Source of the DNA: Promethearchaeota archaeon | Lineage (GTDB): Archaea > Asgardarchaeota > Lokiarchaeia > Sigyniarchaeales > SOKP01 | Assembly: GCA_011364975.1 (NCBI GenBank) | Contig: RDOE01000004.1 | Location: 14,205-78,204 of the forward strand | Reading direction: 5' to 3' | Length of the DNA stretch: 64,000 nt | Shown here: piece by piece, positions 36,428-55,932 of the stretch | Numbering within the stretch: position 1 is the first letter of the stretch | How the letters are laid out: each line of letters starts with the position of its first letter | The notes under the pieces: model-generated | The model's database searches: none | Told to the model about the DNA's origin: nothing | What the model saw: only the letters and a program-made list of their open reading frames with translations | Translations under genes and position numbers: made by a program

Positions 36428-37735
36428 ATGGGAAAAGATCCTAAAACAACCGCTGAAAATCAATTAAAAAAAGCAGAGCAACTATATAAAGCACGGCAAT
36501 TTAAAAAAGCGGGCAAGAATTTTCATTCAGCGGGTATTTCTTTTCTTAAACTAGAAGAATATGAAATAGCTAAAAATTGTTTTCTTGAGGCGATAAAACC
36601 ATTTTTAGAATTAGACAAATACGATACGATTTTAGAACTAATACGAAAGGCAAGCGAAGCTTGTTTGCAAAATAATCAATATTCAGAAGCGTTCCGACTT
36701 TATAAAGATACAATGAACCACATCCCTAAATTAAAGAGTGAAACAGATAAAAATGATAATTATGTTCTCTTTTCTGTTTTATCCTATCTATGTTTACATG
36801 CCAATGGTGCTCCTGAGGAAGGATTAGATTATATTAAAAGAAATAGAAATAAGATAGACAATGACTTCTTCAAAGAAAATAATTTGATTCAATTAATTTC
36901 AGAGTTAACACTTTCCATCAGAGATAAAACGGAGAAATATCTTGAAAACATTCAAAATAATCTTAATCAATTTAAATTAAGAGATCCGGAAGTAAAATTG
37001 TTAAAAGACGTTATACTGTTGACGAAATTTCAGCTTTTAATTGAAAGTTCTTTAATCTTAGATAAGGACACTTATACTACCAATGACATTATTAATTTAA
37101 ATGTGGAGTTAGACACCAATCCTCTCATTCAAGTGCTTAATAACTCATTTTTTAAATTTAAAATCAATAGTTTTCAAATTATTAAACTAATTGTAAGTCT
37201 TTCGGATAATTTAACCACCAATAAAAAGCCAGACTTACCGTTTTCATTAGATATTGGTAGTAAAATTACTTTACCTTTTACATTAAAACCTCACTTTCAA
37301 TTGGATAACCCAAAGATAGGCCCTATAAACTTAACGTTTGAATTGAATAATCTACTAATTTTTAATTATGATACCTCCGTTATAATCCCAAATTTAATTT
37401 CACCCCCTGCCTCCTTAGAGGCTTCAATAAAGAATTTACGCCCACCACTTTTAGATCAATCATTTCCATTAGAAATTTTAATTGAAAATCGAAGCCAAGG
37501 AGAAGCGCTAGATGTAAATATTGATGTTGAATTTCCTGAAGAGCTTAAACTTATGAGAGGCACCACAAATAAGCAAATATATTCATTAAGAAGTAATGAA
37601 AATTTAAAATGGGAGGTCAACCTAAAACCCCTTGATGTAGGAGATTTCATCATTAAAATAAGTATAAAATTTAAAGATCCTGATGATAATCAAATCAACG
37701 ATGTAAAAGAATTCCCCTTTTCAATAAAAATGTAA
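36428..37735 (+). CDS. TPR/SNAP-like helical solenoid + C-terminal Ig-like (CARDB/DUF11-type) domains
   Basis: N-terminal repeats KAEQLYKARQFKKAGKNFHSAG..FLKLEEYEIAKNCFLEA. Beta-rich C-terminus LEILIENRSQGEALDVNIDVEFP...LRSNE...W...P...G.F.I. Confidence 0.65.
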   Translation: MGKDPKTTAENQLKKAEQLYKARQFKKAGKNFHSAGISFLKLEEYEIAKNCFLEAIKPFLELDKYDTILELIRKASEACLQNNQYSEAFRLYKDTMNHIPKLKSETDKNDNYVLFSVLSYLCLHANGAPEEGLDYIKRNRNKIDNDFFKENNLIQLISELTLSIRDKTEKYLENIQNNLNQFKLRDPEVKLLKDVILLTKFQLLIESSLILDKDTYTTNDIINLNVELDTNPLIQVLNNSFFKFKINSFQIIKLIVSLSDNLTTNKKPDLPFSLDIGSKITLPFTLKPHFQLDNPKIGPINLTFELNNLLIFNYDTSVIIPNLISPPASLEASIKNLRPPLLDQSFPLEILIENRSQGEALDVNIDVEFPEELKLMRGTTNKQIYSLRSNENLKWEVNLKPLDVGDFIIKISIKFKDPDDNQINDVKEFPFSIKM

Positions 37736-39031: not shown

Positions 39032-40114
39032 ATGCAAACTTTTAAAATAATCCCTCAGTTTCGGGATAATTGCGTAATCCAAGGAAAGAAGGATTGGTTT
39101 CAGGATCTTAGTTTAGGAGATACGATATTTTTAATCGCAAATGAGCCTACTAAAAAATTCTCTATAATTACTAAAATAGATGGCATAGAGCCTGGAGAAG
39201 AACCAATTATATATGTAGATCAACGCAATTTGGAAAAATTTGCAGAAGGAGATAAGGTATATCTTTTAAAATATAACCCTGCAGAAGCAATTGAAGTTCG
39301 AATTCATATCTCCGATGAATATAGTCTTATTTCAAAAGGAGATTGGACCAAAAATATTAAACCTTCATTAACTAATAGATTGATTGATATAGGTCAAGAG
39401 ATTTCCTTTTTAATTCCATGGGATGCGGGAGATCCAATTATCGGAGCAGGGCTAATAACCTCTACTTTGCCGAATCCTCCATTATTCATCGGTGATCGAA
39501 CAAAAATTATTTTAGATAAATTTTCTAATGAGATTCTTTCTAAACTTAAACGTCTTACGATACAAAGTAAAGAAGATCGAGTAGAGATACTGGAAAAACA
39601 AATAGAGCAAAATATCATAGAGTTTATTAAGAAAATAAAACATCAAAATTACCCCTTCAAAGGTCAAAAATATCAATTTAAAGCAACAAATCCAAAACAA
39701 TTATTTGAGTCTATTCTCACATTATTTAAAGGTTTGGATATAATAGAAGAACCAGTTGAAAAAAATTTTGATGAGAAAGATCAAGATTATTTTGCATCAG
39801 TGGTCTTCTTAAATAGAGAAATTGTCCCATATTTACAACTGATTGATCTTCAAATTATTGGTCTTAAAAATACTGGCATGCTAATAATATGGGTTACTGG
39901 AGAAAAGGAAGAGATTGTTGAAGAGACATTAAACAATTATAATACAAAAATATCAGCATTAAAACAAGGTTTAGAACAACATATAAACCTAGTAAGCATA
40001 CAATGCCCAGAATGTGGCGGAGCTTTACCAATAAAAGATATTCAGATAAATGGTATTGTTGAATGTGCATACTGTGCTAGAATTTCTAAAATACCTAAAG
40101 CATTACGATATTAA
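39032..40114 (+). CDS. Cdc48/p97 N-domain-like protein lacking AAA ATPase, with C-terminal Zn ribbon
   Basis: IYVD......GDKV.L....PAEA.EV.I......IKPSL.NRLI..GQ.I.F......ITSTLP.PP..IGDRTKI matches the CDC48_N/CDC48_2 pattern. No Walker A. Ends with CPECGG...CAYC. Confidence 0.65.
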   Translation: MQTFKIIPQFRDNCVIQGKKDWFQDLSLGDTIFLIANEPTKKFSIITKIDGIEPGEEPIIYVDQRNLEKFAEGDKVYLLKYNPAEAIEVRIHISDEYSLISKGDWTKNIKPSLTNRLIDIGQEISFLIPWDAGDPIIGAGLITSTLPNPPLFIGDRTKIILDKFSNEILSKLKRLTIQSKEDRVEILEKQIEQNIIEFIKKIKHQNYPFKGQKYQFKATNPKQLFESILTLFKGLDIIEEPVEKNFDEKDQDYFASVVFLNREIVPYLQLIDLQIIGLKNTGMLIIWVTGEKEEIVEETLNNYNTKISALKQGLEQHINLVSIQCPECGGALPIKDIQINGIVECAYCARISKIPKALRY

Positions 40115-40131
40115 TTAAAGTGGAATTAATC

Positions 40132-40953
40132 ATGGATGAAAACCGATATACTAGACTCAAAGCGCTAAAAGATTTTGGATATGAAATTAACTGGGATGAT
40201 TTAAAAAGAAAAAGCGTTGCTATTATTGGTATAGGAGGTTTAGGAACTGTAAGTTCAGAAATGGTGACACGGTGTGGAGTGGGAAAATTAGCTTTATTTG
40301 ACTTTGATACAGTTGAACCAGTTAATCTTAATAGAAGTATGTTTAAACCGAAGCATATTGGAAAACCAAAGGCAGAGATAGCCGCAAAAATATTAAATGA
40401 AATCAATCCTGATGTTAAAATCTATTACTTTATTAAGGACATTATGGATATTGATTTTGAATTTACATTTGAAAAAGAACTTTCAAAGATGGACATAATT
40501 CTTAACGGACTTGATAATATTTCTGCTAGAGAATACCTTAATAGTAAATGTGTAAAGTTGAGAATTCCATATATTGATGCTGGAGCTTCTCGCAGCGGAT
40601 TATCGGGTTATATTCACCCCATTATTCCTTTCAAAACAGCATGTGCTAAATGTATTAAAAGTATAGCAATAAATCTTCCCGAAGAGAGAGGAGAGCCTTG
40701 TGTAGCATCTCTACCAACAACTATGGCGATACTAGCAAGTATTCAAGTGCAAGAAATGTTAAAACTTCTTCTAAAATTTGGTGAAATGATTGATTATGTT
40801 ATGTATCATATGATTACTGGACAATTCCTTCATTACAATACAAAGAAAGATAATAATTGTCCTATCTGTGGTATTAGAAAAAAAGACGGTAAAAGAATAA
40901 AGTCAAAGGTTACAGATAAAGATATAGAGGATATAATTGAAAAAATAGAATAA
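40132..40953 (+). CDS. UBA5: UBA5-like E1 activating enzyme
   Basis: RYTRLKALK..G, GIGGLG.V.SEMVTRCGVGKL.LFDFD.VE..NLNR..F.P, SG.I..IIP..TAC..C, catalytic CVASLPTTM, VQ..LK.LL.FG. These match eukaryotic UBA5 (YSRLMALK, AEMLTRCGIGKL, CAASLPTTM) rather than generic ThiF/MoeB. ATG 40132 or GTG 40120. Confidence 0.88.
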   Translation: MDENRYTRLKALKDFGYEINWDDLKRKSVAIIGIGGLGTVSSEMVTRCGVGKLALFDFDTVEPVNLNRSMFKPKHIGKPKAEIAAKILNEINPDVKIYYFIKDIMDIDFEFTFEKELSKMDIILNGLDNISAREYLNSKCVKLRIPYIDAGASRSGLSGYIHPIIPFKTACAKCIKSIAINLPEERGEPCVASLPTTMAILASIQVQEMLKLLLKFGEMIDYVMYHMITGQFLHYNTKKDNNCPICGIRKKDGKRIKSKVTDKDIEDIIEKIE

Positions 40954-40968
40954 ATTAGGTGGTTTATC

Positions 40969-42162
40969 ATCAAAAGGATCCAAATACCCCAAATTTTCAT
41001 TGAGGTCATTAAGAATCAAGCTATCCTTAGTTACGAAGAGATATATGGATGGCTAATTGGATATTCTGAGTCAAATGTAACTAAAGTGTTAGCAATTTAT
41101 GAATGTACACAATTTATAGAACAAACGGTTATCCATGCAATGCCAGATATATTAGAATTTCAAGAAATTAGTTCAGTTCTTCCTCAAGGTATTGGACCAA
41201 TAGGTATTTATCATTCTCATCCAAGCCTAAGTGATATTTTTCATTCTCATACTGATGATTCAACTCTGATAAGCTTAACAAATCAATTTCAAGATTGCAT
41301 CTCAATAATTACTAATGGACAGAACATTAAATTCTACCAAATGGGGAAAAATTATAAAACTAAAGAAATAGAAGTTGAGTATATTGAACCGGAAGTACCA
41401 AAATTTATGTTAGTTTCAATTAATGAAAAATTTGAAATTTTCATTGATCCCGAATTTTTAACTCAAGAAAAAAGTTTAAGTAAATTAAATATACAAATTC
41501 AAAATTTAATCATAAATTATTTTCAAAATAACTGGAACGAATTAGAATTTACACATAATAACTCAATAATAGGAAATAAAGATAAATTGCATAAATATTT
41601 AGTAGAGAAGTTAAATACGGAACCATTACGGCTTAAAATTCCATCTAATTTAAAGCAGCGTCATAGAAATTTATTAAAAGTTATCCAGAAAGGCAATAAG
41701 GATGATACTGTAAGTTACGAAGCTTTTGAATTTATTATTAATACAAAATTTCCACTCTATAATATTCGAAAGTATGATAATTTTGATACACTTAGTCAGA
41801 AAGTAAAGGATGAATTTTTAGGAAATAATCTCATTCAAAAATTGCATAATTTAATCATTGATAAAGAAAACCTTAGAATTATTATACCTAATGACTATTA
41901 TTTGAAGTTTTTTGGATTCTATATAAGAACTTTGAACTTCAATAAAAAAAACTTAAATGAAATCTTAATTAAGAATGAACCGTATAAGTTTGAATTGAAA
42001 ATAATTCGCTTTTTGAAATCCTTCATAAATTTGGAAGTTTCAATTAAGTTTAAGAACTATTTATATGAGCTTTTGAATAATTTGGAAGATTTTGCTGAAC
42101 ATTTTACATGGAAAGAGAAATTAAGTGAAGATTTAAAACAACTCAAAATTAACTTAAAGTAG
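40969..42162 (+). CDS. JAB/MPN+ (JAMM) metallo-isopeptidase with long C-terminal extension
   Basis: The frame upstream of the listed ORF contains the JAMM Glu motif EEIYGWLIG (about 41035-41061), followed by GIYHSHP..SHTD. No in-frame ATG/GTG/TTG precedes the Glu; SD AGGTGG (40957-62) points to ATC 40969. Confidence 0.8.
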   Translation: MKRIQIPQIFIEVIKNQAILSYEEIYGWLIGYSESNVTKVLAIYECTQFIEQTVIHAMPDILEFQEISSVLPQGIGPIGIYHSHPSLSDIFHSHTDDSTLISLTNQFQDCISIITNGQNIKFYQMGKNYKTKEIEVEYIEPEVPKFMLVSINEKFEIFIDPEFLTQEKSLSKLNIQIQNLIINYFQNNWNELEFTHNNSIIGNKDKLHKYLVEKLNTEPLRLKIPSNLKQRHRNLLKVIQKGNKDDTVSYEAFEFIINTKFPLYNIRKYDNFDTLSQKVKDEFLGNNLIQKLHNLIIDKENLRIIIPNDYYLKFFGFYIRTLNFNKKNLNEILIKNEPYKFELKIIRFLKSFINLEVSIKFKNYLYELLNNLEDFAEHFTWKEKLSEDLKQLKINLK

Positions 42163-42258
42163 TAATGAAATTATTAATATTGAAAACCAAAATTAAAAAA
42201 AAATAAAAGGAACATTTTTTTTAAATTTAATAAGATAAAAATCAGAGGTTAAAATATA

Positions 42259-42525
42259 ATGGCATCTGAATTAAATACCATCTATTTTGTTAATAAATTT
42301 GGAACAGAAAAAAAGCAAGTGCCATTCCCTGTTTCAGCAAACATTAAATTAATGGATGTTGTTCCAGAAATCTCAAAAAAGTTTGGAATCTCTTCTCAAA
42401 ATGTTTGTATTGCAAATATGGGAGGACAAGTACTAACTAATACAGACCTATTAAGTCCAATTAAAGAAATTGTTGAAAAGTTCGGAAATACTTTTGATAT
42501 TATTGATAGAGGGATTGTTGGGTGA
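42259..42525 (+). CDS. UFM1: UFM1-like ubiquitin-fold modifier (88 aa, mature C-terminal Val-Gly)
   Basis: Beta-grasp-sized, ends EKFGNTFDIIDRGIVG versus human UFM1 LKHGSELRIIPRDRVG. Single terminal Gly (VG), not GG. Lies in an operon with UBA5-like and UFC1-like genes. Confidence 0.85.
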   Translation: MASELNTIYFVNKFGTEKKQVPFPVSANIKLMDVVPEISKKFGISSQNVCIANMGGQVLTNTDLLSPIKEIVEKFGNTFDIIDRGIVG

Positions 42526-43064
42526 CCAGTTCAGATAAAAGATGGCAAAGGTCTATAGTAGATGAATTAATTCAAGAATTTTCTAACAATTGGGTTTCCA
42601 TAGGACCTAAAAATCCTGCATGGAAAGATCGGGTAAAGTTAGAGATCGAAAAAATTATGCAGTATATTAATTTCTTAAAGAATACTAAAAATAGACCTTG
42701 GTTTAAGTTATTTCCAGAACGAAATCCTCGTTATAATTATTTAATTTGGGCAGGAAATTTGGTTGTGCCTGAACGATCTGAAATAAATTTCGATATCAAA
42801 GTATTACTTACTTCTGAATATCCAAAAGTATGTCCAAGATGTTTCGCAGAAGAATCTATTTTAAATTACTGTGGTAAAATATTTTTGAAGAATATATGGG
42901 AACAGGATAGTAAAAAGTACGTAATGATATGTCATGAACATATGTCTGATACTAATGCATGGAATGAGCGTCTTGGTATTGTTCATTTCTTTATACGCCA
43001 GGTATGGGTATGGTGGGCTGCTCAACAAAATGTAATTATCCAAGAATATGATAAAAAACATTAA
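42522..43064 (+). CDS. UFC1: UFC1-like E2 conjugating enzyme
   Basis: GPKNPAWKDRVKLEIEKIMQYINFLKNTKNRPWFKL vs UFC1 [36 protein letters not shown]. FDI....EYP...P. CGK in place of the UFC1 TAK motif, no HPN. Catalytic ICHEH (C137) vs ICLTDH; LGIVHF vs FGLAHL. GTG start overlaps the UFM1 stop. Confidence 0.9.
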   Translation: MTSSDKRWQRSIVDELIQEFSNNWVSIGPKNPAWKDRVKLEIEKIMQYINFLKNTKNRPWFKLFPERNPRYNYLIWAGNLVVPERSEINFDIKVLLTSEYPKVCPRCFAEESILNYCGKIFLKNIWEQDSKKYVMICHEHMSDTNAWNERLGIVHFFIRQVWVWWAAQQNVIIQEYDKKH

Positions 43065-43272: not shown

Positions 43273-44655
43273 ATGTCTAGAGAATCCAACCAACCCTCCA
43301 ATACTAAGGATATGCCAATTAGCTTACAAGGGATTGAAAAAATCTTGATTTTTTTAAATAATAATGATAAAATCCTTTTTAGTATTAGAGAAATTGGTTA
43401 CAAGACTAAGTTATCGACCCGAACGGTCAAAAATATTCTACTGCAATTAGAAAAATTTAATCAGGTTGAACGTGTCATTGAAGGGAATAATGTTATCCCA
43501 AAATGGCAAATCACTAAATTCGGAAAAAGAGTATTAAAAGAAGCTAAGGGTGTTGGGAATAATATCACATTTTCTACAAGAGAAGAAGAATTGTTAAAAG
43601 GAATAGTGATACCTCAAGAAAAATTTCTTGATAATGATTTAAAAAAGACTTTAGATAGAGCACTATCTGAATTAAATACTATGCAAGTTGAAATAAGTAA
43701 AATTTTGGGGTCAATTCTTAATATAAATAATCCAATTTTAGAAGAAACTACTGGATTCATTTTAAAAAGAATCAAATTTCTCAAGCAAAAACTTACTAAT
43801 TTGTTTGATGACCGAACATCTCAAATTTCTAAAGTGGGTGAAAAATCAAAGAAATTTTCCAAAGAAGAGATAAAATTTAATAAAGTGGAAAAATTGCTCT
43901 TCAACTCATTAATTATTAATCAGATGAAGAGAATTTCAGATATAATTATAGATCTTTCCAATAATGTTGAACATCTAGAAGTTAATAATTCTCTCTCTCT
44001 TGCTAATGATTTAAGAGACGAGATTAGGATCATAAGTGACTTAATTAATCAAAGGGAATCATTAAAAATAGGTTTAAATATTCTTCTAAAAGAAGATTTA
44101 AAACAACTTTCCAATAATAAAATTGCACCTGATATTCTGGATAAAATAATTGAGATTCCCTTGTCTGAGGATATTTTAGGGAGAGAAGTTGGAGAAACGG
44201 TACTAACGTTATTAAACAGGTTAAATAAAAATGAGACAGTTCTTATAGATCATAATTATGAATTGACAGATTTTATTCCTTTGTTTAAACTCTTTCAGCT
44301 TATTTTAGATGAAAAGCCCAATTTAAACTTTACCATCGATAAATTAGAAGAAACAATCAATGAACTCTCTGAACAAGGATACATCCCTGGAATGAAAACT
44401 ATTCGGGATGCAGAAAACAATTATTTGAAAGTAGTTCAACTTAAACCTCATGATGTTTCACAAGATGAGATAGAATTAGTAAAAATTGCATTGAAGCAAG
44501 AAAAGTTTACTCTCGCAGATATTATCAAATTAACAGGTTGGTCTCCAGAACACGCATCAGAACTTTTAAATAAGCTAACAAAGCTTGGAATATTAAACTA
44601 TTCCAGGTCTTTTTTACATGGAGAACGATGGTTTGTTATAACCGAGCAAAAATAA
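43273..44655 (+). CDS. N-terminal winged-HTH + helical bundle + C-terminal EAP30 (Vps22/Vps36, ESCRT-II)-like tandem winged helix
   Basis: N: SIREIGYKTKLSTRTVKNILLQLEKFNQV...WQITKFG. C: VQLKPHDVSQDEIELVKIALKQEKFTLADIIKLTGWSPEHASELLNKLTKLGI resembles Vps22 QSVPAELNMDHTVVLQLAEKNGYVTVSEIKASLKWETERARQVLEHLLKEG. Confidence 0.65.
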   Translation: MSRESNQPSNTKDMPISLQGIEKILIFLNNNDKILFSIREIGYKTKLSTRTVKNILLQLEKFNQVERVIEGNNVIPKWQITKFGKRVLKEAKGVGNNITFSTREEELLKGIVIPQEKFLDNDLKKTLDRALSELNTMQVEISKILGSILNINNPILEETTGFILKRIKFLKQKLTNLFDDRTSQISKVGEKSKKFSKEEIKFNKVEKLLFNSLIINQMKRISDIIIDLSNNVEHLEVNNSLSLANDLRDEIRIISDLINQRESLKIGLNILLKEDLKQLSNNKIAPDILDKIIEIPLSEDILGREVGETVLTLLNRLNKNETVLIDHNYELTDFIPLFKLFQLILDEKPNLNFTIDKLEETINELSEQGYIPGMKTIRDAENNYLKVVQLKPHDVSQDEIELVKIALKQEKFTLADIIKLTGWSPEHASELLNKLTKLGILNYSRSFLHGERWFVITEQK

Positions 44656-44686: not shown

Positions 44687-45787
44687 ATGTATAAGGAAAT
44701 AAAAGGTAAAAGTGTTGTTGATTCCGAGCCAGAGATTATTGCTTGGCAACGTCATGGGATTGATACTAAAAATGGGCCGCTAATTTATGTATTTCCTAAA
44801 CCAGGTGATGATATAAAAAGCAAGAAATTTTTTGCTGTAAAAGATTATGAAAGAGCATTATTTTATAATAAGGGAGAACTTCTAGGAGTCCTCGGGGGCG
44901 GGGTCTATGAACTAGAGAAAAAGGCAAAAATAAAGGGGACGGAGATCGTTTGGATTGACACCTCTTTTGTAGACATCCAGTGGGGAATACCACAATCTAG
45001 TGGTATACCCACTTTGGATGGTACTATTCTCGGTTTACATGGAGATCTAAAATTGAAAATAAGGGATGTTAAAATATTTTACAATGATGTAGTAGCTGGT
45101 AAAAGCCCTTGGACCGTTCAAAATCTGAAAGAATTTATAATGAGTCTACTGCATACATCCTTTAGAGATATATTTAAAAAATATAAGGCTAAACAAGTTT
45201 TACTAGAGGAGCGAGAGCGAATAATTAATCTACTTACAGCGAAGGTCGCCGAGGATTTTTTAAGATATGGTTTAGAGCTAGAAACCTTGAATATACTTGG
45301 TGTTAAAACCTCTGAAGGTACAGAAACTCTTTTTAGAGTAGAAAAAGAAAAAAGTAATGTTTCAGATGAGATCGAAATTTTAAAAATAAAAAAAGATCTT
45401 GACGCTCAAAAAATGGAATTAGAGGCTGCTAAACGAGAATTTCATCGAAAAGAAGAGATTTTAGATTCTCGTATGGAATTGGAAAAATCTAAACTTCAAA
45501 CTGAGGCAGAAAAGATTGAGGGAGAAGCTAAATCTGCTGTGTTGGAAAAACACGCTAGAGCGGCTGTAGCAGGAGAGATGAGAATATTGGAGGTTCATGG
45601 AGATAAAGCATTAGAAATCGCAGATAGTAGTAGAAAGGATCAAATTCGGGCTAAGATTGATGAATTAAAAGAAAAGTTAGATAAATTTGATAATTTATTA
45701 GCAGAAGATAAAATTTCAAAGGATATTTATAAAACAAGAGTAGAGCGAATTGAAAAAGAACTGAAAGCGCTTGAACAACAACTTTAA
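44687..45787 (+). CDS. SPFH/band-7 domain protein (YdjI-like) with coiled coil and SHOCT-like tail
   Basis: V...ERALF..KGE.LGVL.GG.YEL, IQWG, F..YGLELETLNI, long coiled coil, LLAEDKISKDIY tail. Confidence 0.78.
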   Translation: MYKEIKGKSVVDSEPEIIAWQRHGIDTKNGPLIYVFPKPGDDIKSKKFFAVKDYERALFYNKGELLGVLGGGVYELEKKAKIKGTEIVWIDTSFVDIQWGIPQSSGIPTLDGTILGLHGDLKLKIRDVKIFYNDVVAGKSPWTVQNLKEFIMSLLHTSFRDIFKKYKAKQVLLEERERIINLLTAKVAEDFLRYGLELETLNILGVKTSEGTETLFRVEKEKSNVSDEIEILKIKKDLDAQKMELEAAKREFHRKEEILDSRMELEKSKLQTEAEKIEGEAKSAVLEKHARAAVAGEMRILEVHGDKALEIADSSRKDQIRAKIDELKEKLDKFDNLLAEDKISKDIYKTRVERIEKELKALEQQL

Positions 45788-49110: not shown

Positions 49111-50640
49111 ATGAATTACGAACCGAGAACTAGAGAAATGCCTTTAACTCCAGAAGCAATACTTAACGACTTTAAGAATAATGACTTAGATAAAACTTCT
49201 ACTATTGATTTATTAATTTCATTAATAGAAAATGCTGAAAATATTAAAACAAGACTTGAAAGCATAGAAGTTCTTGAAAAAGTTAACTTTAAGGACACAG
49301 TAATCTTTAATATTTTAGAAAATTTACTAATAGCTGATTCTAATGAAGATATTAGATGTCGTGCGGCTGAAGCTCTAAAAAGGCTCTTCCTTGACGATAG
49401 TATATCCCCTTTAAAATGGGCTCTTCAAAATGAGCGCTCTCTGAAATGTTGCCTTTGTATGTTAAATCTTCTTGGCGACTTAAGTTCGATTAAGGCAAGG
49501 AATATCTTAATTAAAAAAATTCATGAAATTAAAAGGAAAAAATATAGATACAACATTCAAAGTCTTTTGAATGATTCTATTGTAAACAATCTTTCTAATA
49601 GCGAACTCTCTGAAATTCTCATCAATTTTTTTGTAATCTCTTTTCTAAAGGCAAAATTTGGTTACATCAGTTATGAGATAAATGAGAAAGGTTTAATTCA
49701 GAAATTAGATTTATCAAATATAGATTATCAAGGTTTAGGATTAAATCGCCTAGAAAAAGCATTAGAGTGTATTTTATCGCTGTCGTATTTAAAAGAGCTA
49801 GATCTAAGCAATAACCACTTACAATTACTTCCTGATGGAATTATTAAATCAACCCACCTAGAAATATTAGATCTAAGTTTTAATAATTTGGCCAAACTAC
49901 CAGAATCGATTTCTAATTTCAAAAAACTTAAAATATTAAATTTAAAATCTAATGGTTTAAAATTTTTACCTGATTCCCTGTCTAATCTTTCTTCGCTTGA
50001 AGTATTAATATTGAGAGATAATAATCTATCTGAGTTACCTGTTTCACTTTGTTATTTAAAAAATCTTAAAGTATTAGATTTGCATCATAATGAATTAAAG
50101 CAAATTCCATACGAGACTTATTGCCTTAAGAATCTAAAAGAACTTGAATTGGGCTGGAATGATCTGGATCAAATCCCTATATCTTTAGAAAAGCTTGATT
50201 CATTAGAAAAATTGAACCTGGGTAGAAACTCTATAGAATCAATTCCAAAATGGATTGGAAATTTAAAATCTATTAAAGAGATTCACCTCTATGACAATCA
50301 CATTTCAAGATTGCCGGATAATGTGTGCTTACTTCATAATTTATTACATTTGAATTTAAGAAATAATAGATTCGATCAATTTCCTGATTGCTTGCGTTCG
50401 TTAACTTCATTAAAAATTCTAAATCTTAGTTGGAATAATTTAACCATTCTCCCACCATGGATTAATAACCTCATTAATTTAGAAGAATTAAATCTCTGGG
50501 GAAATAAAATTGATCTTATTCCCGATTCGATAGTTGATTTAAAACATATAAAAAGAATTTATTTAAATTTCAATAAGATCAAGCAAATGCCAAAAATATT
50601 AAAAGATCTTGAAGTAAATGGTGTAGTGATAACAATATAA
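49111..50640 (+). CDS. HEAT-like N-domain + leucine-rich repeat protein
   Basis: LENLLIADSNEDIR..AA..L...PLKWAL..E, then roughly a dozen 23-aa LxxLxLxxNxLxxLPxxIxx repeats. Confidence 0.9.
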   Translation: MNYEPRTREMPLTPEAILNDFKNNDLDKTSTIDLLISLIENAENIKTRLESIEVLEKVNFKDTVIFNILENLLIADSNEDIRCRAAEALKRLFLDDSISPLKWALQNERSLKCCLCMLNLLGDLSSIKARNILIKKIHEIKRKKYRYNIQSLLNDSIVNNLSNSELSEILINFFVISFLKAKFGYISYEINEKGLIQKLDLSNIDYQGLGLNRLEKALECILSLSYLKELDLSNNHLQLLPDGIIKSTHLEILDLSFNNLAKLPESISNFKKLKILNLKSNGLKFLPDSLSNLSSLEVLILRDNNLSELPVSLCYLKNLKVLDLHHNELKQIPYETYCLKNLKELELGWNDLDQIPISLEKLDSLEKLNLGRNSIESIPKWIGNLKSIKEIHLYDNHISRLPDNVCLLHNLLHLNLRNNRFDQFPDCLRSLTSLKILNLSWNNLTILPPWINNLINLEELNLWGNKIDLIPDSIVDLKHIKRIYLNFNKIKQMPKILKDLEVNGVVITI

Positions 50641-53040: not shown

Positions 53041-54543
53041 TTGATGAATATATCTCCAAAGGATATTCTTAATCAATATAAGTTAAAAAAGTTAGATAAA
53101 GTATCTACAATAAATCAATTAATCTCAATCGTCGAAGATAGTGAGGATTTAGCCCAAAGATTAGAAAGTATAAATGCGTTTGTTATTATCAATGCCAAGT
53201 CAGTAGCGGTTTATAAATTATTAGAAAATTTGCTCATTTCAGATACACATGAAATAGTTAGATATGTTGCTGCAGAGATATTATATAAAATTTTTCAAGA
53301 TAATGCTTTTGAACCATTAAAATGGGCATTTTTACATGAGGAATCCATAAAATGCCTTTTATTACTATCCAAAATTCTTGGAATGATCGAATCTCAAGAA
53401 TCTAAAAATTTATTATTAACAAGACTACAAAATTTCAAAAATAAAAAATTAAATCAAGATCTTAGATCTCTGCTTTTTCAAAACCCAATCGATGGACTAA
53501 CTTGTAATTTTCTATCAAATATTATTAGCAATTATTACATTATTGAGGATTTGGAAAAAAAGTTTGGTCAAATTAATTTTGAAGTTAATCATGGATTAAT
53601 ACTTGAATTAGATTTATCTGACGTGAGCAGTCATGTTTTTGGATGGACTGTTCTTGATAAATTTCCGGAGGTAATAAGAAATTTAACCTCACTAAAAGTA
53701 CTTGATCTTAAATTCAACAGATTAAAATCAGTAACTAAATCAATAAGTAGTTTAAAATCTTTAGAATATCTTGATTTGAGTTATAATAAAATAAGAGCTC
53801 TCCCAAGTTCAATTATAGAACTCAAATCTCTCAAAACTCTTATATTAAGGTATAATAAGCTTAAAAGTTTACCTTATTCTATTGGTGCACTCAAATCATT
53901 GAAAGTATTAGATTTACGAGCAAATGAATTATATTTACTACCTAAATCCATTAAAAATCTTTCAAATTTAGAGACGCTTGATTTACATGGTAACAATTTA
54001 GGAGATTTCGAATACTCTTTAAAAAAATTAAAAAACATTAAAAAAGTAGAAATTGGGTTAAATAATCTTGAAAGGCTTCCTAAATGGCTAAAATCTCTTA
54101 AGAATCTTCGATTTTTAGGGGTAGGTGGTAATAGAATAATTAATCTCCCTAAATGGCTAGCATCTTTCCATTCATTAGAAAAGTTACATCTATTTGATAA
54201 TAAGTTAACAGAACTTCCAAATAATATTGGGTCTTTGAAATCTTTATTAGAATTAACATTATGGAATAATAGTTTAGATTCATTACCTTTCTCATTTAAA
54301 AGATTAAAAAACTTAAAAGTTTTGAACTTAAGTTGGAATAAATTTAATACTTTACCGGAATGGATTGATTCACTTAGATCTCTAGAAATACTGAGTTTGT
54401 GGGGTAATAATTTATATTCTCTACCAGAATCAATTGAAAACTTAAAATCATTAAAAATTTTAGATCTTAACTTTAATAATATAAAGGAAATCCCTAAATT
54501 TTTAAAATCACTTGAGAAAGATGGATTAATAATTTATAAATAG
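53041..54543 (+). CDS. HEAT-like N-domain + leucine-rich repeat protein
   Basis: LLENLLISDTHEIVRYVAA...EPLKWAF..E, then 23-aa LRRs; C-terminus closely parallels 49111..50640. Confidence 0.9.
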   Translation: MMNISPKDILNQYKLKKLDKVSTINQLISIVEDSEDLAQRLESINAFVIINAKSVAVYKLLENLLISDTHEIVRYVAAEILYKIFQDNAFEPLKWAFLHEESIKCLLLLSKILGMIESQESKNLLLTRLQNFKNKKLNQDLRSLLFQNPIDGLTCNFLSNIISNYYIIEDLEKKFGQINFEVNHGLILELDLSDVSSHVFGWTVLDKFPEVIRNLTSLKVLDLKFNRLKSVTKSISSLKSLEYLDLSYNKIRALPSSIIELKSLKTLILRYNKLKSLPYSIGALKSLKVLDLRANELYLLPKSIKNLSNLETLDLHGNNLGDFEYSLKKLKNIKKVEIGLNNLERLPKWLKSLKNLRFLGVGGNRIINLPKWLASFHSLEKLHLFDNKLTELPNNIGSLKSLLELTLWNNSLDSLPFSFKRLKNLKVLNLSWNKFNTLPEWIDSLRSLEILSLWGNNLYSLPESIENLKSLKILDLNFNNIKEIPKFLKSLEKDGLIIYK

Positions 54544-54558
54544 AGAGGATAATTATCA

Positions 54559-55932
54559 TTGAGCCGCCAACCTACGTTAAAAAATAAAAATAAAGAATTT
54601 CAAGATAAATCACTGGAACTAAGAGAAATAATTACGATCATAGAGAATAGTATTAATAAATCCGAAAGAATTGAAAGATTAATAAAACTCAATGAATCTT
54701 TAATTAATTTTGAAAAAATTGGGATAGATAAAGAAGAAATCTTTACCTTTTTTGAAAATTTACTAATCTCTGATTCTAATGACAAAATTAGGAATGAATC
54801 CGCTGTTTTTCTCGTTAAAAATTATCCTTATAAGGCATTAGAACCTTTAAGATGGGCAATCCATCACGAGATATCACCAATTACTCTCTTAACGATCTTT
54901 GATTCAATAATTTCAATATTAGAAAGAATGGAACGTGAGAGTACTTCCCTTTTCAAACCCTATTTAATCTCAATGCTAAAACAAATGGAAGATAATGATT
55001 TTAAAGTAGGATTTCAAAAATTGCTCGATAATAAAAAAGAAGCTGATTTTGAATTTCAAGAACTTAAAGATATTTTACAGAACTATTTTGCTCTAATTTT
55101 TTTAAAAAAAAGATTTTGGCGGGTAAAGTATGAAATCCAAAATTGCAAACTTATTGAATTAGATTTCATCTTTAAAGGATTATCAAGTTTGCCAACGGTA
55201 TTAAAATATCTAATTTCGCTTAAAGTGTTAACTTTAAGGTATAATCAATTAGTCGCATTACCAGATTGGTTAGGCGATCTTAAATCTCTTGAATATCTAA
55301 ATATAAATGTCAATAATCTCAATAACCTACCTTCTTCTATTGGAAATCTTTCAAATCTGACAGAACTCTTGTTATGGAAAAATGAATTACAAATATTACC
55401 TGATTCAATCGGTTCCTTAACGTCGCTCAAAACATTAAATTTAAGGCTTAATCAACTTCAGGTATTACCTTCCTCCTTAGGAAAACTTACTAATTTGAAA
55501 GAGCTAAATCTTCATGATAACAAACTAAAATTATTACCAAAAAATTTTTCAAATTTAAAGTCATTAGAATATCTTAATTTAAGTTGGAATTCATTAGTTG
55601 AACTCCCTTCGTTAATGGGAGAGCTTCAATCACTTAGATCGCTAGATCTGGAGAGAAATGAGTTGAAGACTATTCCAGATTCAATAGGCTCATTATCAAG
55701 TTTAGAATATTTAAATTTAAAGGAGAATGAATTAGAAAGTATCCCTGAATCAATAACTGAATTAAAGAATCTAAAAATTTTGAATATTTCAAAGAATAAG
55801 CTAAAAAGTTTCCCTGAATCTATTATAAATTGCCCAAGACTAGAGGAAATATATATAGAAGATAATGAAATTGCTAATATAACTAATTATGAGTCTTTAT
55901 TGAAAGCAAAAGGAATTCATATACGTTTGTAA
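54559..55932 (+). CDS. HEAT-like N-domain + leucine-rich repeat protein
   Basis: FFENLLISDSNDKIR..A...EPLRWAI.HE, then 23-aa LRRs. Confidence 0.9.
   Translation: MSRQPTLKNKNKEFQDKSLELREIITIIENSINKSERIERLIKLNESLINFEKIGIDKEEIFTFFENLLISDSNDKIRNESAVFLVKNYPYKALEPLRWAIHHEISPITLLTIFDSIISILERMERESTSLFKPYLISMLKQMEDNDFKVGFQKLLDNKKEADFEFQELKDILQNYFALIFLKKRFWRVKYEIQNCKLIELDFIFKGLSSLPTVLKYLISLKVLTLRYNQLVALPDWLGDLKSLEYLNINVNNLNNLPSSIGNLSNLTELLLWKNELQILPDSIGSLTSLKTLNLRLNQLQVLPSSLGKLTNLKELNLHDNKLKLLPKNFSNLKSLEYLNLSWNSLVELPSLMGELQSLRSLDLERNELKTIPDSIGSLSSLEYLNLKENELESIPESITELKNLKILNISKNKLKSFPESIINCPRLEEIYIEDNEIANITNYESLLKAKGIHIRL

Follow-up and report, generated by a model that had tools for sequence, protein, structure and literature searches.

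UFMylation, protein conjugation with the small tag UFM1 through the activating enzyme (E1) UBA5 and the conjugating enzyme (E2) UFC1, is treated as a eukaryotic pathway. Bacterial defence operons for conjugation of a ubiquitin-like protein (Ubl), known as Bil/Bub and CBASS Cap2/Cap3, consist of four parts, E1, E2, a JAB protease, and the Ubl, and are spread sporadically. Archaeal ubiquitin operons, of the Caldiarchaeum subterraneum type and the Asgard ubiquitin-E1-E2-RING type, likewise hold E1, E2, and Ubl genes together with a JAB/Rpn11-like precursor protease (described in part of PMC6043591). On the UFM1 pathway itself, passages of PMC10183829 state that UFM1, C53, UFC1, and UFSP2 are restricted to eukaryotes, that UBA5 is likely to be bacterial in origin, and that Asgard archaea are the source of UFL1 and DDRGK1. 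We analyzed 64,000 nucleotides (the window; contig RDOE01000004.1, positions 14,205 to 78,204) of a Promethearchaeota archaeon from the Lokiarchaeia (assembly GCA_011364975.1), in which an earlier note had pointed out a five-gene UFMylation-type operon. We consider it likely, from the sequence and from predicted structures, that the window encodes a self-contained seven-gene cassette for Ufm1-type protein conjugation in this Lokiarchaeia-type Asgard archaeon.

The five same-strand genes that the earlier note had placed at 39032-43064 were found there, all on the forward strand. They are real, and the unit is larger than had been proposed, a seven-gene cassette to which two further forward-strand genes, g6 and g7, belong. 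The family and fold of the core parts, the conservation of their catalytic residues, gene linkage, and co-occurrence were computed, and the identification of the core is supported by every test except the sequence-profile match of the Ubl.

UBA5-, UFC1-, and Ufm1-like proteins

The E1 gene (40120..40953) encodes 277 amino acids (aa) when read from GTG at 40120 and 273 aa when read from ATG at 40132. Its Pfam family is ThiF (179 bits), and the protein has a GxGGxG nucleotide loop and two CxxC pairs. The five best phmmer matches in the PDB were all human UBA5 (154-172 bits; top match 1.3e-49, 172.5 bits), followed by E. coli MoeB (1.7e-26, 96.7 bits) and ThiF (83 bits). None of the NCBIfam models for MoeB, ThiF, or the SAMP E1 (UbaA) reached its cut-off (120 versus 266 bits; 84 versus 450 bits), and NCBIfam gave no match for six of the seven cassette proteins. 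The E1 therefore ranks with UBA5, not with MoeB, ThiF, or UbaA (172 versus 97 bits for MoeB), as had been proposed from its motifs RLKALK, EMVTRCGVGKL, and CVASLPTTM, all of which are present. Cys194 (TGT 40699-40701), in CVASLPTTM, aligned to the Cys of human ...GVCAASLPTTM, and the ACAKC and NCPIC segments of a four-Cys zinc site aligned to the Cys pairs of human UBA5. Identity to human UBA5 is about 38%, counted from the alignment midline. Several E1 homologues are annotated as UBA5 by JGI; the matches listed were all close archaeal relatives.

The E2 gene (42522..43064, 180 aa) overlaps the stop of the Ubl gene by 4 nucleotides. The features that had first suggested UFC1, GPKNPAWKDRVKLEIEKIMQYINFLKNTKNRPWFKL, the lack of an HPN motif anywhere in the E2 sequence, and MICHEH with Cys137 (TGT 42930-42932), are as had been claimed. 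Pfam UFC1 (PF08694) matched the protein with 26.3 bits against a cut-off of 25, and a precomputed PF08694 match exists for 20 of 45 E2 homologues. A profile built from 18 homologues placed 26 UFC1 sequences first among PDB entries (E 1.6e-6 to 1.1e-3, the weakest being Leishmania UFC1), with the canonical E2 UBE2L3 next (E 0.05). When the E2 profile was compared with 1.84 billion representative proteins there were 43 matches at E ≤0.001, and two of the ten that were scanned with Pfam were bona fide UFC1 (151 and 203 bits). Alignment of the archaeal E2 profile with the 203-bit UFC1 by hhalign (probability 96%, E 4.1e-9, 126 columns) paired MICHEH with RICLDIH, which puts Cys137 at the position of the UFC1 catalytic Cys; phmmer alone, misled by an insertion of about 12-15 residues, had paired an earlier segment instead. 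Cys137 is invariant in the 18-sequence alignment, and other Cys positions vary. At the UFC1 TAK motif, which is named in PDB titles, hhalign set YCGK of the E2 on KTPK; Gly118 and Lys119 are invariant, and position 117 is C, T, or A.

Predicted structure gave the same answer. The AlphaFold 2 (AF2) model of the E2 (pLDDT 83.6) retrieved UFC1 at ranks 1-29 in Foldseek, and canonical E2s followed after a gap, at E ≥0.06. In VIA-align, ranks 1-28 were all UFC1 (Z 12.7-15.4, with 148-158 residues aligned from residue 4-9), compared with Z ≤9.0 and alignment from about residue 30 for canonical E2s. The match of the E2 to UFC1 is thus one on which Pfam, profile, hhalign, and fold comparisons all agree.

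The Ubl gene (42259..42525) encodes 88 aa and ends, as had been reported, in ...DRGIVG-stop, with Gly88 as GGG at 42520-42522. The DRG-x-VG C-terminus is invariant in 21 Ubl sequences. Its AF2 model (pLDDT 82.5) matched Ufm1 in 9 of the top 10 Foldseek hits (TMq 0.81-0.85, compared with about 0.66-0.70 for ubiquitin) and at ranks 1-11 in VIA-align (Z 11.6-14.2, root-mean-square deviation 1.1-2.8). The best proteins other than Ufm1 in VIA-align were the TBK1 ULD (Z 11.0), a USP7 Ubl (10.5), and Caldiarchaeum ubiquitin (10.3, versus 14.2 for the best Ufm1), and the bacterial complex 8tyx, of a Ubl with a deubiquitinase, ranked only 45-50. The earlier description of the Ubl as Ufm1-like therefore holds for the fold and not for sequence profiles, as detailed below.

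Several features are shared with the UFM1 pathway: a catalytic Cys within the E1 adenylation domain, as in UBA5; an E2 that has the UFC1 fold, an N-terminal region missing from canonical E2s, no HPN, and its Cys at the UFC1 position; and a tag of the Ufm1 fold with a single Gly after Val, which carries a C-terminal extension in some genomes. In contrast, the archaeal cassette has a JAB metalloprotease where eukaryotes have the Cys protease UFSP, its E1 has no C-terminal tail, its E2 has the 12-15-residue insertion before the Cys and CGK where UFC1 has TAK (the Lys being invariant), the Ubl and E2 are fused in some loci, and UFL1 and DDRGK1 are missing from the cassette, with zinc-ribbon, EAP30-like winged-helix, and SPFH partners instead. 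The archaeal ubiquitin operons differ in their GG-ending ubiquitin, canonical UQ_con E2s, and RING E3, and the cassette is set apart from the bacterial defence operons by the specific likeness of its E1 to UBA5, its E2 to UFC1, and its Ubl to Ufm1. The system is best described as an archaeal variant of a UFM1-type cascade with a JAB protease, Ubl-E2 fusions, no UBA5 tail, and accessory proteins of its own.

The JAB protease, its start codon, and tag precursors

The JAB/JAMM metalloprotease gene (40966..42162) encodes an N-terminal part of about 130 aa and a C-terminal extension of about 270 aa that belongs to no known family. With the codon that follows the E1 stop as its first, the protein matched Prok-JAB (PF14464) with 31.4 bits (cut-off 25) and had the motif residues Glu (41038-41040), HSH (41212-41220), Ser (41245-41247), and Asp (41254-41256). 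The pattern E...HxH...S..D is conserved in all full-length aligned homologues. When read from GTG at 41086, the first canonical start, the protein scored 21 bits, below the cut-off, and the catalytic Glu was missing. There is no in-frame ATG, GTG, or TTG between the E1 stop (40951-40953) and 41086. The candidate start region (40958..40971) instead has a Shine-Dalgarno-like GGTGG at 40958-40962 followed by in-frame ATC at 40966 and 40969. The gene spacing of the earlier note (gaps of 17, 15, and 96 nucleotides, then the 4-nucleotide overlap) was reproduced when the E1 was read from ATG 40132 and the JAB gene from ATC 40969. The start it had used for the JAB gene therefore gives the right spacing but is a non-canonical ATC in a place where no ATG, GTG, or TTG is available.

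The same arrangement recurs in relatives. In 10 of 25 loci, the window included, the stretch from the upstream stop to the Glu codon contains no in-frame ATG, GTG, or TTG. Among Loki-type loci, 14 of 18 have a Shine-Dalgarno-like GGTG(A/G) followed 5-6 nucleotides on by an in-frame ATA, ATT, ATC, or (once) GTA, and four loci (L017, L019, L021, and L024) have ATG at the spacing where the others have ATA, ATT, ATC, or GTA. No indel or other difference falls in 40930-40991 among the differences listed for contigs from four runs of four studies. Comparison of these sequences indicates that the JAB gene probably has a conserved non-AUG start. Standard gene callers would shorten the protease and drop its active-site Glu. 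Production of the protease as an E1-JAB fusion by stop-codon readthrough, the two open reading frames being in frame here, was considered and rejected: two stops separate them in L002, L007, and L010, and L011 has the JAB gene in another frame.

Some Ubl homologues are encoded as precursors. In 28 loci the Ubl ends at VG in 16, carries 1-3 extra residues in 5, and is fused to the E2 in 7 (L005, L007, L010, L014, L015, L017, and L031); among stand-alone Ubl proteins, 6 of 21 have tails. Each fusion is one protein of about 270 aa in which the invariant VG is followed by a variable linker. Of 45 E2 homologues, 13 are 266-284 aa long, and the 8 that were read are Ubl-E2 fusions (P0005, P0010, P0016, P0022, P0024, P0025, P0030, and P0039). 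In the window, the Ubl and E2 reading frames, with their 4-nucleotide overlap, are one frame away from the fusion arrangement; no indel at the Ubl/E2 junction is among the differences listed for contigs from four runs of four studies. Because the Ubl is fused or tailed in many genomes, a protease that cuts after VG is needed there, and the linked JAB enzyme is a candidate for that activity. No UFSP (Peptidase_C78) was detected at E ≤1 in the genome of the window, which is rated 99.25% complete.

Gene linkage, accessory genes, and genomic setting

Linkage was counted by searching 32 related loci with nine proteins of the window (tblastn). E1, JAB, Ubl, and E2 genes occur together in 25 of the 32, in three gene orders, and the loci include the complete chromosomes of Lokiarchaeum ossiferum (L020) and two Heimdallarchaeum species as well as metagenome-assembled genomes (MAGs) with Sigyn and Hermod labels. 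The synteny that the earlier note had proposed to check across Asgard genomes is thus present, complete chromosomes included. Because the same operon is present in complete Asgard chromosomes, the contig is neither eukaryotic nor chimeric. The E1 ranks with UBA5, the E2 and Ubl match UFC1 and Ufm1, and the contig is archaeal; the earlier note had named each of these points as able to overturn its reading, and all went in its favor. The Pfam UFC1 model reached its cut-off in the genome of the window and in 0 of 14 control genomes. Since no control matched and the core genes are found together in 25 of 32 loci, the finding of the E2 and the operon stands above chance.

The E2 profile matched 37 of 400 Asgard genomes, in 21 of 85 genera. 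E1 matches were found in 37 of the 400 at E 1e-40 or better (34 at 1e-60 or better). Both proteins occur in 30 genomes, the E2 only in 7, and the E1 only in 7 (4 strong, 3 weak). Because of this co-occurrence in 30 genomes, the E1 is taken to be dedicated to the Ufm1-type system. Besides the cassette E1, the genome of the window encodes five ThiF-family proteins, and a ThiF gene lies close to each of its two canonical UQ_con E2 genes. The two ThiF-E1 plus UQ_con loci lie on other contigs (G000:C128:39835-41585 and G000:C132:20638-24903) and are probably of the ubiquitin type; because they are separate canonical loci, the Ufm1-type cassette is an additional system. A same-genus genome (G241) encodes the E1 twice and the E2 twice, over two contigs. 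One contig labelled as a Patescibacteria group bacterium (L027) encodes part of an E2 with 86% identity to that of the window; this contig probably comes from an Asgard archaeon and was binned with a bacterial MAG. Among wider E2 relatives (P0211, P0217, P0231, P0232, and P0236), stand-alone proteins with Asp at the catalytic Cys position would be UEV-like, and E2 domains are fused to SIR2 and TPR (P0211, 866 aa, a Lokiarchaeota MAG, on the contig of L023) or to leucine-rich repeats (513 aa). No E2 relative on a viral contig was found among 38 pattern matches. All of the sequencing runs listed as holding the sequence (20 runs, 8 studies) are DNA, with no RNA run among them.

Three accessory genes accompany the core. 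The first gene of the cassette, g1 (39032..40114, 360 aa), has no known family and ends in a CxxC...CxxC zinc ribbon. Pfam gave only sub-threshold zinc-ribbon matches for it, the weak Zn_ribbon_LysW match recurs in 13 of 18 family members, and its profile matched only a LysW-type zinc ribbon in the PDB (E 0.0068); it had no Atlas match. The four Cys and 14 other columns are invariant in the family alignment, and a homologue lies beside the E1 or within a few kilobases in 24 of 32 loci. The predicted-complex score of g1 with E2 and Ubl was 0.07 against a mark of 0.32. A suspected resemblance of its N-terminus to a CDC48-N domain was dropped, there being no Pfam support in any of the 18 members.

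The gene g6 (43273..44655, 460 aa) encodes a winged-helix protein with an N-terminal winged helix, a helical middle, and a C-terminal tandem winged helix like that of EAP30/Vps22-36. Its own Pfam matches are weak helix-turn-helix and winged-helix ones. EAP30 is matched by 5 of 13 family members (best E 3.3e-4), in a Heimdallarchaeum the gene that separates the E2 gene from the SPFH gene passes the EAP30 cut-off (34.2 versus 26.8 bits), the g6 profile matched only SNF8 in the PDB (E 0.09), and the Atlas lead is EAP30 (0.85). The last gene, g7 (44687..45787), encodes an SPFH/Band 7 protein with a long C-terminal coiled coil (Band_7 41.4 bits, Band_7_1 40.5 bits). It is found in 20 of 32 loci, Heimdall loci included, and travels with g6, which is beside the operon in 14 of 32; the pair always adjoins the core, whether downstream, upstream, or divergent. 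Neither g1 nor g6 matched PF09743 or PF09756 (UFL1/DDRGK1) at E ≤1. The sole UFL1/DDRGK1 match in the genome is a 789-aa protein with PCI, E3_UFM1_ligase, and DDRGK-like winged-helix repeats and a C-terminal VPS28. It is encoded on another contig (G000:C162:8012-10381; L042:5013-7382), unlinked to the cassette, among glycosyltransferase and Fe-S genes.

The region is an ordinary archaeal chromosome, neither a provirus nor eukaryotic DNA. G+C content is about 31% throughout the window, the closest named relatives are Promethearchaeota (Lokiarchaeia) MAGs, and the source genome comprises 3.74 Mb in 200 contigs with a rated contamination of 6.09%. Genes around the cassette encode OMP decarboxylase, Fe-S proteins, an M24 peptidase, aldehyde:ferredoxin oxidoreductase, and several leucine-rich-repeat proteins; the two genes that flank the cassette in the window have a match in 0 of 32 loci. 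Upstream, at 36428-37735, is a gene for a 435-aa protein with sub-threshold matches to SNAP/TPR (N-terminus) and TRAPPC13_C/TRAP_beta (C-terminus), which is next to the cassette in 0 of 32 loci. Three paralogous leucine-rich-repeat proteins of 457-509 aa are encoded downstream (49111-50640, 53041-54543, and 54559-55932).

Function and origin of the cassette

A cascade of the following kind would account for the parts. The Ubl would be made in the window in mature form, ending in VG. In relatives it would carry a short tail or be joined to the E2, and the JAB metalloprotease would then cut it after VG. The UBA5-like E1 would adenylate Gly88 with ATP and take the Ubl as a thioester on Cys194, and the tag would pass to Cys137 of the UFC1-like E2 and then to target lysines. 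The JAB enzyme might also take the tag off, no UFSP-type protease being encoded. A JAB start of AUC, AUA, or AUU behind a strong Shine-Dalgarno site would hold the protease level low. The products of g1, g6, and g7 may supply target choice and a membrane-associated platform, comparable in function to the winged-helix scaffold of UFL1/DDRGK1, although no homology to that scaffold is detectable. Function, targets, the parts played by g1, g6, and g7, and any descent to eukaryotes are what we infer from the cassette.

Several results weigh against a Ufm1-type cascade. The Ufm1 model (Pfam PF03671) matched 0 of 21 Ubl family members at E up to 10, and neither the Ubl sequence nor its profile matched Ufm1 in the PDB. 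The Pfam UFC1 match to the E2 is marginal and spans only profile positions 13-91 of 155, and Asp replaces the Cys in some E2 family members. The E1 lacks the C-terminal UFM1- and UFC1-binding motifs of UBA5, which lie in the C-terminal tail of the human protein and are named in part of PMC5428781 and in the title of PDB entry 7ovc; the archaeal E1 ends about 25 aa after the adenylation domain in a short, acidic/hydrophobic tail, and its UBA5 match spans adenylation-domain constructs only. The roles proposed for g1, g6, and g7 come from gene linkage only. The spread is patchy, with the E2 in 9 of 90 high-quality Asgard genomes and in 5 of 41 same-genus genomes, which fits an accessory more than a core role.

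Patchiness even within a genus would also be expected if the same biochemistry served antiviral or stress defence, as an archaeal counterpart of the bacterial four-gene Ubl systems. The part list (E1, E2, JAB, and Ubl) is the same, the genes behave as a cassette whose flanks are not conserved, one relative fuses an E2 domain to SIR2 and TPR (P0211), and the E1 matches CBASS E1-E2 models in PADLOC. However, those E1 matches reach at most 61.5 bits and cover the nucleotide-binding part only, versus 172 bits for UBA5, so that overlap is limited to the generic E1 core. The other six proteins had no convincing match in PADLOC (its 2023 version may lack Bil/Bub models): none for four, a marginal one for the E2, and a sub-threshold generic winged-helix one for g6. 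The neighbors in the window are metabolic genes and leucine-rich-repeat proteins, not defence genes, and patchiness is not decisive because eukaryotes lost UFMylation repeatedly (according to passages of PMC10183829). We regard a defence role as unlikely. That the genes serve a sulfur-carrier or cofactor pathway, with a ThiS/MoaD/SAMP-like Ubl and a MoeB/ThiF-type E1 and no conjugation, is scarcely credible. The E1 does belong to the ThiF superfamily and does match MoeB/ThiF models, and the Ubl is small, has a beta-grasp fold, and terminates in Gly, but the MoeB/ThiF/UbaA models fall far under their cut-offs, the genes are always accompanied by a dedicated E2, whose Cys is invariant, and by a JAB protease, the tag has VG rather than GG at its end, and the five other ThiF-family genes of the genome could serve such a pathway.

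A further possibility is late lateral transfer, from a eukaryote to the archaea or in the other direction, in which case the archaeal genes would be silent on the origin of UFMylation. The patchy spread would suit this, as would the 38% identity of the E1 to human UBA5, which comes near the 43-49% between Loki and Heimdall E1s. An E2 tree (31 rows and 179 columns: two UFC1 and 27 archaeal sequences, with two canonical E2s of the same genome as the outgroup) bears on the question. The two UFC1 and all 27 archaeal E2s join against the canonical E2s with support of 100/100, and the UFC1 pair is sister to the archaeal clade (support 94/72), not nested in it; with only two UFC1 rows and long branches, the tree argues against a recent eukaryote-to-archaeon transfer and does not settle direction. 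The use of JAB rather than UFSP, partners that have no eukaryotic counterpart, occurrence in four Asgard lineages with divergence that follows lineage, and a published Ufm1 phylogeny read as indicating Asgard provenance (in sections of PMC12962969) also speak against it, and we consider late transfer quite improbable. The placement of the pathway before eukaryogenesis, which had been proposed from the window sequence, is compatible with this small tree and is not shown by it. More tentatively, and with real doubt, eukaryotes may have inherited the E1-E2-tag core of UFMylation from an Asgard operon in which this core already operated alongside a protease and a membrane platform of winged-helix and SPFH proteins. 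UFC1 would then be no eukaryotic invention, the EAP30-like winged-helix partner would be a functional forerunner of UFL1/DDRGK1, and JAB would have been replaced later by UFSP.

Ufm1 homologues in Asgard archaea were already known: sections of PMC12962969 and of its preprint report them in nine Asgard clades, in line with the mention of Ufm1-like folds in Asgard archaea in the earlier note. The main text of PMC12962969 does not mention UFC1, UBA5, an operon, synteny, or neighborhood, and the full-text literature searched, with subscription journals and supplements outside it, describes no UFC1-like E2 or such operon in archaea; PMC10183829 is the only paper in it to mention both UFC1 and Asgard. 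The JAB enzyme in place of UFSP, the Ubl-E2 fusions, and the conserved non-AUG start indicated for the JAB gene are new details. Linkage of a UBA5-like E1, a UFC1-like E2, a Ufm1-like tag, and a protease would put the whole catalytic core in archaea, and the origin of the UFM1 pathway becomes testable there. Because the operon is present in cultured Lokiarchaeum ossiferum, it offers a small experimental system for ancestral function and targets.

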